Under the pieces are notes generated by a model that had not been told where the DNA came from, searched no databases, and worked only from the letters and a program-made list of their open reading frames with translations. A DNA stretch of 63,952 bases, the filler included, from Perkinsus olseni (taxonomy: Eukaryota): the NCBI GenBank assembly GCA_013115125.1. It is 5 parts of 5 records of this genome, joined end to end, with 100 filler letters (N's around TTAATTAATTAA, not from the genome) between each part and the next. Parts side by side here need not be neighbours in the genome. Positions count along the whole stretch, not along the records: positions 41,045 to 54,462 come from JABANN010000758.1; 4 more parts are not named here. One strand, 5' to 3'. Within the stretch, counting starts at the first letter, position 1; each line of letters begins with the position of its first letter. Position numbers and translations under genes: made by a program. Shown one piece after another: positions 43,361-49,167 of the stretch.

Positions 43361-43458
43361 TATCTCCCTTAGGCTTGGTGATTTATTGTTTTCCCTCGGC
43401 AGTAGTGTAGTGTTGATAGCATTGTCCCGAATCTCGTACGAGTTAGCTTTTTATTGGT

Positions 43459-44943
43459 ATGTCATCGGAGCTCTATAAAGTGTACGCTTGTACGAACGGC
43501 AAGTTCAGCCTGGAACTGCCCCGCATGGTGGCGTCTGCCATTGCCGGCGGTGCCACTTGTGTTCAGCTCAGATTGAAGGATGTCAGTACTGGTGACTACA
43601 TCAAGTTGGCCAAGGAGACCAAGAAGGCCATGCCAAGCCACGTCCCTCTGATCATCGATGATCGTGTTGATGTGTGTCTGGCTAGCGGTGCTGATGGCGT
43701 TCATGTTGGTGACTCCGACATGCCTGTTAAGGACGCTCGGTCTATCATTGGCCCTGATAAGATCCTCGGAGTATCGACCTATGGGCGCAGAGAAGACGCT
43801 ATCGCGGCCATCCAGGACGGCGCTGATTACATTGCCACTGGTGCGGTATACCCAACAGTCACTAAGCCTGGTGCGGTTGCTAAGGGGTTGGACCAGATAG
43901 ACGTCCTTAAGGAGGCTTTGAAGGCTACAGGGAAGACTCTGCCAATCGTGGCTATCGGTGGCATATCTCCCGTTACGGCCATCGACTGCGTCCAGAGAGG
44001 CGCTGATGGTGTATGTGCTGTGAGCCAAATCTTCGACTCTTGGGAGTCACCGGAGTCGCGCGCCAGGAAATTCCTCAAGTCCTACTGTTCTGGCATGGAG
44101 ATCAGGTCGAAGTTGAGTACACACGGTCGCTACGACGGTGGAAGGGTGGCGGGCCTCTGGGCGAAGCTGGCTCAAGCCGGCCCCCTCACCCAATGTATCA
44201 CCAACTACGTCTCGATGAACTTCATGGCCAATGCTTTATTGGCCGCTGGTGCCTCTCCGGCCATGGCCCACGCTAAGGAAGAGGCCCCGCAGTTCCTGGA
44301 GATGGCCGGTGCTCTCAACGTTAACATCGGCACTTTGTCTAGCAATTGGGTCGATTCCATGCGGGCGTGCGCTAAGAAGGCGACGGAGACCGGCAAGCCG
44401 TGGGTTCTGGACCCGGTAGCCGCTGGAGCGACGACATTCCGGACAGGTGTTGCGACAGAGCTGCTCAGCTACAAGCCTACCATTCTCAGAGGAAATGGCG
44501 GTGAGATCCTCGCCTTGGCTGGGGAGACTGGCGCTGTGAAGGGCGTTGATTCGACCGTGGGCAGCGATGCTGCTTTGGAAGCTGCTAAGCACATCGCAAG
44601 GAAGTTTGGTAGCGTCGTGTGCATCTCCGGTGCGACTGACTTCGTCACGGATGGCAACAGAGTGATTGAGGTTTGCCATGATGTGCCGATGTTGCCGTCA
44701 ATCACGGCCACTGGCTGCACACTCAGCGCCCTCATGACCTCCTTTTGCGTTGTCGCTGAGGATCCGATCGATGCTGCTGTAGCGGCCTGCGCTGGATGGT
44801 CTTTGGCTGCCCAGGAAGCCTCGGTGAGAGCGGAGGGCCCGGGAAGTCTGGCCGTGGAGTTGCTCAACACCCTTCCCAAGCTGAGAGATCCGGCTTGGCC
44901 AGCATGGAGCAGACTTGTTATTTTTGAACATAATCGTCAATAG
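43459..44943 (+). CDS. thiE-thiM: ThiE (thiamine-phosphate synthase)-ThiM (hydroxyethylthiazole kinase) fusion, THI6-like, intronless
   Basis: ThiE motifs GATCVQLRLK, IIDDRVD, GVHVGDSD, YPTVTK, VAIGGI. ThiM motifs ITNYVSMNFMANALLAAGASPAM, NIGTL, VLDPVAAGAT, RGNGGEI, ITATGC. Confidence 0.95.
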   Translation: MSSELYKVYACTNGKFSLELPRMVASAIAGGATCVQLRLKDVSTGDYIKLAKETKKAMPSHVPLIIDDRVDVCLASGADGVHVGDSDMPVKDARSIIGPDKILGVSTYGRREDAIAAIQDGADYIATGAVYPTVTKPGAVAKGLDQIDVLKEALKATGKTLPIVAIGGISPVTAIDCVQRGADGVCAVSQIFDSWESPESRARKFLKSYCSGMEIRSKLSTHGRYDGGRVAGLWAKLAQAGPLTQCITNYVSMNFMANALLAAGASPAMAHAKEEAPQFLEMAGALNVNIGTLSSNWVDSMRACAKKATETGKPWVLDPVAAGATTFRTGVATELLSYKPTILRGNGGEILALAGETGAVKGVDSTVGSDAALEAAKHIARKFGSVVCISGATDFVTDGNRVIEVCHDVPMLPSITATGCTLSALMTSFCVVAEDPIDAAVAACAGWSLAAQEASVRAEGPGSLAVELLNTLPKLRDPAWPAWSRLVIFEHNRQ

Positions 44944-45616
44944 GCGAACGGCGTTCATTTCCTTTCCGACTCTGATTGGTCTTGTGTGTTTGAATTCGAG
45001 TGGGTGATGATTTTTGTAGAAGTCGCAGAGGTGTCTGTATGATAGCGTGTAAAGGACTGGTCTCCCTTAACTCCTCCACCCTCGCTCTGCCGATAATACC
45101 GCGTCTACGGTCGGGCATCAGGGGCTCAGAGTCGACTCACGTGGAATCAATATCTCCTCTAGGGTGGAAGTCTACTCATAATGTTGACAGGATGGGAGGA
45201 ATGACTCCTGCGTGACGCGAGTAGCGGAGATGATGGTATTCATCACTACCGTGCACGCATGCACAGCGTCGCTAGCAGCCGCGGACAGCATCAACAGATG
45301 CATCAAAGGTCGGTCAGAGTGATGAGAGAAATCTTAGTCTGCTCATGTGTCGTGTTCACTCTCCGTTGAACGGAGTCCGTTCATCAGGGCGGCTGCATCC
45401 CTTCCGTTTGGGGTTGGAATACTGAACAATATTATGGCTCGCCGTTTCCGTGTCACAGCCTCTGCGGACTCTGCTGGGAAGACTGAGGGCGACACACTAC
45501 GGGGGACTTTCTCGTCGATATTCCATCCATCCTGTCCAACACCATGGGCGCCTCTCCTAATCGGGGTTGATCCTCTTTAAGATTTCCACATATATCTCAG
45601 CTTTGCCGTCTAGCTG

Positions 45617-47373
45617 ATGCTCCTCAAATCGTGCTTCCTCGTGGCCGTTCTCGGTACTGTGTTGCCGGGCCTCACCGCCGAGATCGTCGAATTCCGCTTG
45701 GACGGGCTGAGTCACTCCAGCGATGGAATCAAGAAGGCTGTCACTGAAGAAGGTATGTATTTCGGCAAGGAGAGTATCTTGGCCACACGTTGACGACCAC
45801 GCAGATGTGCGGTATCTTCGAATGCCTTCAACTTTTCAGGGGCCTTCCTTATCGCTGGGCTCTCCAACGAGTTCACGGAGGCCTACAGAGGCATCGCGAC
45901 CGGATTGCCGGAATGCTCAGAAGCTGATGCTGACGGCGTTGACACTTTAGACGATGGCACCGTCCGTATCACTTTCGCCCAACGTACGAGGGTTCGCTGG
46001 CATCTTCCCGCTCAGATTGGAGCAGGCCATGAGGATTCGTTGCGAGATTAAGTGTACAGGTTCTCTAGATGGAGAGACCTCGGGGTTCATGGCCCGAGGG
46101 AGTTGCCCGATGAATCTCGCCGAGAATATGAAGGAGATGAGTGCCGATCTTGACTACATTGGAAGGGAAGTTGCGGTTGAGCTGACTGATGTAAGTCTTA
46201 ATCTCGGTGAGCCCCATTTGGGTGAATAAGATGATTTCAACAGCGCTCGTAGTGTAACGGTATCATACAAGCTTCCCATGCTTGTGTCCCGGGTTCGACT
46301 CCCGGCGGGCGCAGTTTATTACGATCAGGCCCTTTCACCCAGCGTCCATCATCCGGACCTGCCTTCCATCATAGACATCCTCGAGAAAGGCCGTGAATAT
46401 CATCTCGATCACGTCCACATCTACCAAAACCGTAACAATAGTGCGGTTGGAGCCCACAAGGTAGGAGGGTAGCTTCTCGTCGATCGTCTCTCTACCGCTA
46501 TTCGTTACCACCGACGGCATCGTTACGTATCTCTGGTTGCTTCCAGGACTCCTCAACACCCACCCTCACTTGGCACACCGACCAAGGGGCATTCTTGCTC
46601 CTTGTACTCCCACCAGGAGATCAGAGCTTCCACTATAAGGATAGTCAAGGCGAGGAGGTAACAGGACCCCAGCCTCGCGCTCTTCCCGAGGTTTCACTGC
46701 CAGACTACACTCAGCATCCCTAACAACGGTGAAGTCAGAGTCCTCGTGGTGATGGGTAACGCTCTGCGCAGCAACTTCTTCGGTGAGGTGGCGAACGGCG
46801 CTCGATCGTGCCGGGATCCCCTCTGTTGGCTTCGGAATCTCAGAAACTACTCCGCCCATCCGCCCACTCCCCCACTCGGTTTATCTGAAGAGCCTTTCGC
46901 CTGGCGACCCTCGCGTCGTCATCGGCAGAATGTTCCTGCCCCCCGCGGACATCAGAGATTCCCAAACGGGTCTCACGTACGAGGCCTGGAGTAAGCAAGC
47001 CATGATCCCCAATCCCGTCTTCGACACCGAAGAGGTCATTGCTGAGAAGAGGCGGCTACGTAAGATGCTTATAGGGTGACAATACAGGCTAGCATCATTT
47101 TCTTGATCAGAGACTAGTTGCAACTCGAGCAGTATTCAATGCTGGATGAGATGTATGGAGAACACTTGCTCGGCTGGGCAGACGGCAGTATGCTGGAATA
47201 AAGCTACCCAAACTGCATGCCCTATCGACAAAAAGATGCGTCCGGAGTGCAGCGTCGGGTGTCTAGGCTCTTCAGGGACCACTACAAAGGCGCCGAGGTC
47301 CGCGGCTACCAGTAATGTCGTCACCAAGGCGGTGGCCGCTATGGTAGCCCTGCTCGGGTTGGTCAACTTTTAG
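45617..47373 (+). CDS. Signal-peptide 2OG-Fe(II) oxygenase-like protein with Cys-rich, hydrophobic C-terminus; multi-exon
   Basis: MLLKSCFLVAVLGTVLPGLTA signal; HLDHVHIY; TWHTDQGAFLLL (HxD); PLPHSV...RVVIGRMFLPP (distal His, then Arg); ends AAMVALLGLVNF*. Confidence 0.65.
46243..46313 (+). tRNA. tRNA-Gly(CCC), located inside an intron
   Basis: Acceptor stem GCGCTCG/CGGGCGC plus discriminator A; anticodon arm CAAGC-TTCCCAT-GCTTG; T arm CCGGG-TTCGACT-CCCGG; 71 nt. Confidence 0.93.
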
Positions 47374-47731
47374 TGACCGATCTTAGTTCGAACATGTGGT
47401 TTAGTCATTTCTGAGCCGTACAATTACGATGGAGTGCCGGCTGGAGTAGGTCGCCTCTCCGGTAGATATTGTCGCCGACACTCATGTCAAGTCCTCGGCT
47501 GTCAATCGACTTTTTCTCCACACGCTCTGGCTGTTCGGGTTCACATCACACGCATGGTACGGCTGGCGCACGGCGTCGAGGCATCAATGATTCATCTCTT
47601 GGGAAATCACGGCGGGGCGAGAGTTCACGCAACGCGGAGGCTTGTCTATAGTCGGCGTCATCTCATCACTACTCAACGTGGTGGTGAAGGATCCATAAAT
47701 TAGTTCCTCTCTTGCTGCAGCTCAGTTTCCA

Positions 47732-48359: not shown

Positions 48360-49167
48360 TTAGTCACTCGCAATCATCCCGCAGACCAGACGAGCACCAG
48401 AGTTACCCGTAGCTCTCGAACCGACCGACCGACCGAGTGAGGGATGATGTCGGACCAAAGAGCAGGATCAGACTGTCGTAGAAGGAGCCCTTCGCCCTGC
48501 CTGATGCATCGGCTTTGATGTTGCCCATGTCACCAACGTGCCTGACTGTCATATTCAAACGGTCACCGTGGAACTTGTAGAAAGGGTTGTAGTGTCCCCC
48601 GGTGGAGGTGCAACCGTTGGAGAAGTCGGAGAACTCATGAACATGCACACCATGCTGGGCGAACGGCTCCAAGTTGTATACATCGTAGCTTATCTTGGTT
48701 TTTGCGTGGCTCTCCTGCTCGAAGTAAGATGTACCGCGGACCTGACTTCCGCTGCCCTGAGGCTCGAGCTTGGCCGAAGCTTTGATAGGGAATCTTGGGC
48801 CTCTTCTGTCGACTGAGAGGAGTACGGATTCGAACACCCCTTGCAGTACCCCTTACATGGTAGGACGTCATCACAACGTACCGGGTAGTATTCGTGGCAG
48901 TTCTTCTGGAAGGCCACCGAGCATGGAGTCGCGTTCGCGCTGTCGGCCGGCTTAATAAAATACCTGAAGCGCGATGGGATTCGTAGTGGCCATCCTTGAG
49001 ATGTGCCCTCACAGATCTTGGCATACGGGAGGCGGCGATTGATAGTCTTTGCAATAAGAGCCCTTGAAAGTGCATCCGGGGATAAGGCTGCAGAGATCGT
49101 CACATGCGTTCCCAGGTAGCTGGGCTGCGACGAAGGGGAGAAAGCCGATAGTCACGAGAAGCATCAT
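48360..49167 (-). pseudogene. Disabled duplicate of the secreted Cu/Zn SOD gene
   Basis: Near-identical to 52951-53799, but the VLHADQDDLGLGGNPG-coding segment is deleted at ~48423. This removes a Cu-ligand His and shifts the frame. Confidence 0.8.

Follow-up and report, generated by a model that had tools for sequence, protein, structure and literature searches.

A complete transfer RNA (tRNA) gene, tRNA-Gly(CCC), lies in sense orientation inside a spliced intron that belongs to a protein-coding gene in the DNA analysed here, a stretch of 63952 bases from Perkinsus olseni (assembly GCA_013115125.1, five parts joined end to end) that is referred to below as the window and along which all positions are counted. 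The host gene runs from ATG to stop at 45617-47373 on the plus strand. Its model, obtained from tblastn, contigs of RNA-type sequencing runs and exon joining, comprises eight exons on that strand (45617-45752, 45840-45983, 46060-46190, 46329-46460, 46547-46657, 46704-46782, 46844-47059 and 47111-47373) and seven introns of 87, 76, 138, 86, 46, 61 and 51 nucleotides (nt), all of them GT..AG. A homology search with a 47-residue piece of exon 4 found one protein of 403 amino acids, P0001, which is 98% identical over that piece. Its NCBI entry is called 'hypothetical protein FOZ63_026310 [Perkinsus olseni]', whereas UniRef lists it as 'Fe2OG dioxygenase domain-containing'. Placed on the window with tblastn, P0001 gave eight blocks from 45617 to 47370, and the exon boundaries were then set to GT..AG. 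The eight exons joined in this way measure 1212 nt and hold 403 codons with one terminal stop, and the predicted product is identical to P0001 at 389 of 403 residues (96.5%), which places the DNA in P. olseni or something very close to it (Alveolata, Perkinsozoa). Across the junction of exons 3 and 4, the sequence of P0001 reads ..EVAVELTDALSPSVHHPDLPS..

Intron 3 occupies positions 46191-46328 of the plus strand (138 nt, phase 0). Its donor GTAAGT (46191-46196) stands in the context GAT/GTAAGT at 46188-46196, and its acceptor CAG (46326-46328) in the context ATCAG/GCC at 46324-46331. The intron follows codon 137, and splicing joins ..AVELTD to ALSPSV..; because the intron is removed in frame, the open reading frame (ORF) of 403 amino acids with a single terminal stop is restored. 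A preliminary description of this DNA, made from the sequence alone, had proposed a 138-nt intron with donor at 46191 and acceptor at 46328, about half of it filled by a tRNA ending 15 nt before the acceptor, and an in-frame junction after AVELTD. Sequence and geometry agree with the former proposal, and the phase, the 403-residue product and its match to P0001 agree with the latter.

Contigs were placed on positions 45400-47600 from three RNA-type runs belonging to three studies (X7, X15 and X8) and from one DNA run of a divergent strain (X17). X15 is recorded as RNA, and X7 and X8 were taken as RNA by guess only, an assignment that is supported because their contigs are without all seven introns. 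These are contigs and not reads, and they give no splicing efficiency, intron retention, transcript starts or ends, or RNA levels. The joint from 46190 to 46329, which skips 138 nt with GT..AG ends, is present in contigs of all three RNA-type runs, with 130 letters on the shorter side and no other letters. The presence of this junction in RNA was the check that had been set beforehand for the proposed intron, and the intron passed it. The other six introns (87, 76, 86, 46, 61 and 51 nt) are also removed in the RNA-type contigs, the 76-nt joint being found in two of the three runs, and the X15 contig breaks at that joint. The DNA run shows none of the seven joints, its contigs continuing through the introns. 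The unique parts of intron 3 have no cover in the contigs of the three RNA-type runs, which proves nothing on intron retention. The spliced contig of X7 has a word depth of 295, a value that is not a measure of expression. Intron 3 is a genuine and spliced U2-type GT..AG intron.

The tRNA-Gly(CCC) gene (46243-46313, plus strand, 71 nt) lies wholly within intron 46191-46328, on the same strand as the host, and is the single tRNA that ARAGORN reported in the whole 63952-base window. It has a full cloverleaf with the anticodon at 46275-46277, and the Rfam tRNA family RF00005 matches 46243-46313 with 60.8 bits against a gathering score of 29, over model positions 1-71 of 71 and without truncation (E-values of 7.5e-12 on 4.5 kb and 1.1e-10 on the whole window). 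The two programs together corroborate the earlier claim of an intact tRNA in sense orientation. No RNA family besides tRNA reached the Rfam threshold in the whole window, which leaves no second Pol III (RNA polymerase III) gene for terminator comparison. The anticodon CCC is found at tRNA position 33, in the 7-nt loop TTCCCAT, according to both ARAGORN and the sequence, and CCA is not encoded, the final tRNA base being A followed by GTT. An A at position 73 is typical for eukaryotic tRNA-Gly. The cloverleaf score, the glycine anticodon, the discriminator and the missing encoded CCA, which is typical of nuclear genes, are those of a eukaryotic cytosolic tRNA-Gly. The minimum-free-energy fold of the whole intron contains the acceptor, anticodon and T arms of the tRNA, and it gives no evidence of extra structure in the whole intron (fold energy z = -1.19, with 28 of 200 shuffles equally stable).

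The Pol III consensus sequences that we used were TRGCNNAGTGG for the A box and GGTTCGANNCC for the B box. The B box of the tRNA, GGTTCGACTCC (46292-46302, plus strand, tRNA positions 50-60), is a full match to the consensus, and the A-box region (46250-46260, plus strand, tRNA positions 8-18) is an approximate one that agrees at six of the nine specified positions, so that the gene carries the internal promoter of a type-2 Pol III gene, complete in the B box and approximate in the A box. At the 3' end, a terminator of at least four T residues is absent nearby: the first such run on the plus strand starts 784 nt downstream, at 47098, and the first run of at least five T residues is 1197 nt downstream of the tRNA. 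Beginning 2 nt past the end of the tRNA, the sequence TTTATT (46315-46320, plus strand) has the T3AT2 form and could serve Pol III as a non-canonical terminator. According to Orioli et al. 2011 (PMC3141230), many human tRNA genes have no run of at least four T residues within 50 bp, 'interrupted T5' motifs (T3VT2/T2VT3) cause human Pol III to terminate, in vitro as well as in cells, with an efficiency ranging from sub-optimal to strong, and the natural T3AT2 of TRNAL12 is a strong non-canonical terminator. The Perkinsus gene resembles these human genes in having no T4 run near its 3' end and a T3AT2-type element directly after the tRNA. The earlier statement that the tRNA is followed only by GTTTATT, with no run of four T residues, is therefore right as to the missing run, none being present for 784 nt, and in need of amendment as to the word 'only', since TTTATT belongs to this human terminator class. 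With the A and B boxes and a plausible T3AT2 terminator, a complete Pol III unit would fit inside the intron.

The tRNA is one of many similar copies. Word depth in the DNA run X17 (54 contigs) sums to 2560 over 46214-46287, whereas the single-copy flanks have a depth of about 28. Loose ends leading into unrelated sequence were found on the 5' side at 46236-46242 (46236, 46238, 46239 and 46242) and on the 3' side at 46314-46316; as they begin right at the tRNA edges, the repeated part is essentially the tRNA alone. Sequences like tRNA-Gly(CCC) are highly multi-copy in this organism, and their flanks are unrelated. The two visible 3' flanks of other tRNA copies (30 letters each; three further loose ends are not displayed) are also without a T4 run, and the missing T4 is thus not peculiar to the intronic copy. 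In the related P. marinus, hundreds of copies of some tRNAs have been described, among them 116 of tRNA-Gly-GGA and 349 of tRNA-Leu-CTT, and Dada transposons target tRNA genes in that species (Kojima and Jurka 2013, PMC3706591). Parts of the tRNA, used as exact patterns against metagenome contigs, gave 0 matches.

Comparison with the divergent strain shows that both the intron and the tRNA are retained there. One X17 contig (record 10, 46257-47517) runs from the last 57 nt of the tRNA through the tail of the intron into exon 4 and beyond, and another (record 9, 46176-46268) from exon 3 through the 5' part of the intron into the first 26 nt of the tRNA, which is below the 31 letters needed for a bridge. 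X17 differs from the window by 27 other letters in the 1261 positions of 46257-47517, about 2%. The 52-nt 5' part of the intron has two differences, 46243-46268 has none and 46257-46313 has one at most, and as about 1.6-2.7 differences would be expected at the local divergence of 2-4% (our own arithmetic), the tRNA gives no significant sign of constraint.

The geometry of intron 3 is 52 nt, then the 71-nt tRNA, then 15 nt, adding up to 138 nt, of which the tRNA makes up 51%. Without the tRNA the intron would measure 67 nt, within the range of 46-87 nt of the other six introns of the host. Its 5' part (46191-46242, plus strand, 52 nt) is unique sequence except for the last 5-7 nt (TTCAACA), which are common to the 5' flanks of some other tRNA copies. 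By manual count, the last 15 nt of the intron contain 8 pyrimidines, compared with 5-11 in the other six introns. A YTNAY motif occurs within the last 45 nt of three of the seven host introns. Intron 3 has it in the form TTTAT, whose A stands 10 nt before the last intron base. The only branch-site-like motifs in the 15-nt tail are this TTTAT and, just after it, TTAC, and both overlap the T3AT2 region. Four AG dinucleotides at or after the tRNA start lie ahead of the acceptor used (46242, 46251, 46270 and 46313). Under the first-AG rule, the first AG after the branch site serves as acceptor. As these four AGs are not used, the rule would place the putative branch site of intron 3 in the 15-nt tail.

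Two side observations concern the surroundings of other tRNA copies. An RNA-type contig of X7 joins the tRNA (window positions 46238-46313) to 163 nt of a different 5' flank, and the word depth of X7 in the tRNA bin is about 35. Another genomic tRNA-Gly copy, seen as a loose end in X17, shares the 7-nt leader TTCAACA (46236-46242), and its further 5' flank has GTTT and the 8-mer ACGATCAG in common with the 15-nt tail of the intron (46314-46328). For 30-mers drawn at random from the window, the probability of having an 8-mer in common with the tail is 0.0013, or about 1% over the eight loose ends shown. The motif GATCAG is over-represented in the window (37 and 33 occurrences, where 15.6 are expected), and intron 7 has it at its end as well. 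The resemblance between tail and flank may stem from signals common to such flanks, from duplication of the leader-tRNA-trailer unit as a block, or from chance.

We consider it probable that the tRNA is an autonomous Pol III gene nested in sense in a spliced intron, where it is a tolerated passenger. This explanation rests on the intact internal promoter, the plausible terminator, the multi-copy family with unrelated flanks and the normal size of the intron once the tRNA is subtracted. A tRNA copy of this family would sit in the intron without disturbing its host, Pol III would transcribe it from the internal A and B boxes, and transcription would terminate at T3AT2, 2 nt past the tRNA 3' end; the 15-nt tail left after the tRNA would still hold the 3' splice signals. 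Such a gene has precedents in Caenorhabditis elegans, whose intronic tRNA genes are treated as Pol III units on which the host gene has an influence (Sagi et al. 2016, PMC4999229), and in Arabidopsis, where introns with sense tRNAs are removed normally (PMC6152437). Since the host pre-mRNA necessarily carries the tRNA in sense, RNase P and RNase Z may in addition free some tRNA from the intron, which would be a by-product and not the main route.

Several points weigh against an autonomous Pol III gene. The sense orientation is a requirement of production from the transcript of RNA polymerase II (Pol II), and in Caenorhabditis elegans the Pol III occupancy of intronic tRNAs is lower, being lowest for those in sense, which fall below the antisense ones (Sagi et al. 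2016, PMC4999229). The evidence on T3AT2 termination comes from human Pol III only (PMC3141230), and for Perkinsus such termination is proposed from the sequence by analogy. The gap between the T4 runs around the tRNA spans 1265 nt and is among the longest 5% in the window. In addition, the X7 contig with the 163-nt leader may stem from a further tRNA-Gly copy that lies within a long transcript, or from carried-over DNA.

According to an explanation that we regard as rather unlikely, this copy would be silent or nearly so: a recently duplicated member of a highly multi-copy tRNA family, it would have landed in an intron, would add little tRNA by either route and would persist only because it leaves splicing undisturbed. 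The organism has many other copies, as the X17 depth of 2560 against about 28 and the hundreds of copies of some P. marinus tRNAs (PMC3706591) indicate, the low Pol III occupancy of sense intronic tRNAs in the worm is consistent with a poorly used gene, and the differences between the window and X17 within the tRNA lack any significant sign of constraint. On the other hand, two divergent strains both have the cloverleaf and the B box fully intact, and marks of a pseudogene are absent.

Production of the tRNA mainly from the host Pol II transcript, in which RNase P and RNase Z would cut it from the 138-nt intron during or after splicing, in the manner of intronic snoRNAs and mirtrons, seems to us unlikely. 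It would agree with a tRNA in sense and wholly within a spliced intron, with the lack of any T4 run for 784 nt, with a host mRNA that is well represented in the RNA-type runs (the X7 spliced contig, whose depth does not measure expression) and with the presence of another tRNA copy behind a 163-nt leader in an RNA-type contig of X7. Pol II-made tRNAs or tRNA-like RNAs are also documented (PMC2943599; PMC6152437): the tRNASec of Trypanosoma brucei is transcribed by Pol II and has a deficient B box (PMC2943599), and the tRNA-like RNA derived from the GUT15 intron of Arabidopsis is not transcribed autonomously by Pol III and inhibits the splicing of its intron (PMC6152437). The Perkinsus tRNA is like these two in being embedded in sense in a Pol II unit. 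It differs from them in its promoter, since both are without a working Pol III promoter whereas its B box is a full match and its A box an approximate one, and it differs from GUT15 in that the contigs show no sign of splicing inhibition at its intron. The T3AT2 directly after the tRNA also speaks for Pol III, and the missing T4 run loses weight as an argument because other copies with unrelated flanks are without it as well. A single case in sense is uninformative, as about half of passenger insertions would be in sense (56% in C. elegans, PMC4999229). The preliminary description had named the right two alternatives, a tRNA processed from the Pol II intron or a Pol III unit that competes with host splicing, with premises on the terminator and on competition that need correction; competition found no support, only the spliced form having been observed in the three RNA-type runs (in contigs, which carry no measure of efficiency).

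A further version of the Pol II route, which we hold to be improbable, combines production chiefly from the Pol II transcript with mobility: the leader, tRNA and trailer, about 93 nt together, would possibly be a spreading module that brought the branch site and the acceptor into the intron. The hints in this direction are the sharing between tail and flank (GTTT, ACGATCAG and the 7-nt leader) and the X7 contig with the 163-nt leader. If this were true, multi-copy tRNA units would reshape introns and ride in mRNAs in this lineage. Finally, the idea that there is no intron, the tRNA being intergenic and the flanking ORFs and splice-like motifs arising by chance, could draw on the absence of Pfam and PDB matches for the encoded peptides, yet it is refuted by the spliced contigs, in which three of three RNA-type runs remove exactly 46191-46328 together with six other GT..AG introns, and by the open frame of 403 codons obtained on joining the exons, 96.5% identical to an annotated Perkinsus protein, and we give it practically no credence.

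Intronic tRNA genes are well known in worms, flies and plants, so that the locus, neat as it is, adds no new kind of system and is an ordinary case. Of the 609 tRNA genes of C. elegans, 44% are intronic, a proportion that chance would also give, and the sense orientation accounts for 56% of the intronic ones; a mirtron-like route for intronic tRNAs was raised as a possibility in the same study (Sagi et al. 2016, PMC4999229). The Perkinsus gene resembles these cases, for example sup-7 in intron 3 of C03B1.2 (PMC4999229), in being a canonical tRNA wholly within an intron of a Pol II protein-coding gene. Unlike them, it belongs to an alveolate parasite, it sits in a very small intron (138 nt, of which 51% is tRNA, with the acceptor 15 nt away), and it is known here from sequence and contigs. 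Intron-encoded tRNAs of worms and flies were also considered by Aeby et al. 2010 (PMC2943599), with the suggestion of Pol II transcription. In Arabidopsis, 19 genes overlap with tRNAs in sense, and for nine of these genes the context is listed plainly as 'intron' (Plewka et al. 2018, PMC6152437); tRNA-Arg(CCG) in At3g12587 is a canonical tRNA gene nested in sense in an intron, as in Perkinsus. Deletion of a canonical sense tRNA from its intron left host splicing unchanged in Arabidopsis (PMC6152437); the effect of the tRNA on splicing was tested there by deletion, whereas for Perkinsus the spliced product is seen in contigs only. Human nuclear intronic copies of mitochondrial tRNAs have been reported to affect splicing (PMC7722341). 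A non-exhaustive literature search found no paper on nuclear tRNA genes in introns of Perkinsus, and in PMC3101222 tRNA comes up only in connection with mitochondrial frameshifts. Both the observation and its two-way interpretation are already in print for other organisms, and the case stands out by its lineage and its compactness.

The locus offers an RNA-supported case of a full tRNA gene that fills half of a very short spliceosomal intron and stops just short of its acceptor. The splicing of this tRNA-bearing intron indicates that the spliceosome of an early-branching alveolate tolerates a stable cloverleaf beside the 3' signals. It also provides a defined place at which to ask whether intronic tRNAs in sense come from Pol III, Pol II or both, a question raised by the work on worms and trypanosomes. 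In practice, anyone annotating Perkinsus genomes should allow for coding genes that contain a tRNA gene and are not broken by it.

The product of the host gene was compared with protein families and structures. Pfam gave no match for 11 separate ORF pieces around the tRNA and no family at E<=0.1 for full P0001, and the PDB sequence search with P0001 gave no match at E<=1. The Fe2OG dioxygenase label of P0001 is a database name that was not reproduced by the Pfam or PDB sequence searches. By eye, P0001 has an H-T-D motif, a hydrophobic N-terminus and a hydrophobic C-terminus. The peptide of exon 3 (46060-46190) gave eight matches in a search of a representative library, mostly to repeated stretches in long unnamed proteins, for example with 12 matching stretches in P0002 (1417 amino acids) and nine in P0005 (1099 amino acids). 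These matches are uninformative on the junction, and exon 3 may encode a repeat-type module. No paralogue of the host gene was found within the window.

At the 5' end of the host gene, the spliced contig of X7 covers 45400-45750 continuously and runs 139 letters farther upstream of the examined stretch, which suggests either a long alternative 5' untranslated region or read-through from the gene located upstream. In X8 and X15 the contigs begin closer to the gene, at 45599 and 45608, 9-18 nt ahead of the ATG at 45617, and no spliced-leader sequence is visible at the contig starts. The gene directly upstream of the host, on the same strand, is a fused THI6-like thiamine biosynthesis gene (43447-44943, plus strand), an intronless open frame of 498 amino acids that contains a thiamine monophosphate synthase domain (PF02581, 1.1e-50) and a hydroxyethylthiazole kinase domain (PF02110, 1.8e-77). 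Downstream of the host gene, on the opposite strand, an open frame at 48403-48852 (minus strand) carries a Cu/Zn superoxide dismutase domain (PF00080, 6.8e-27).

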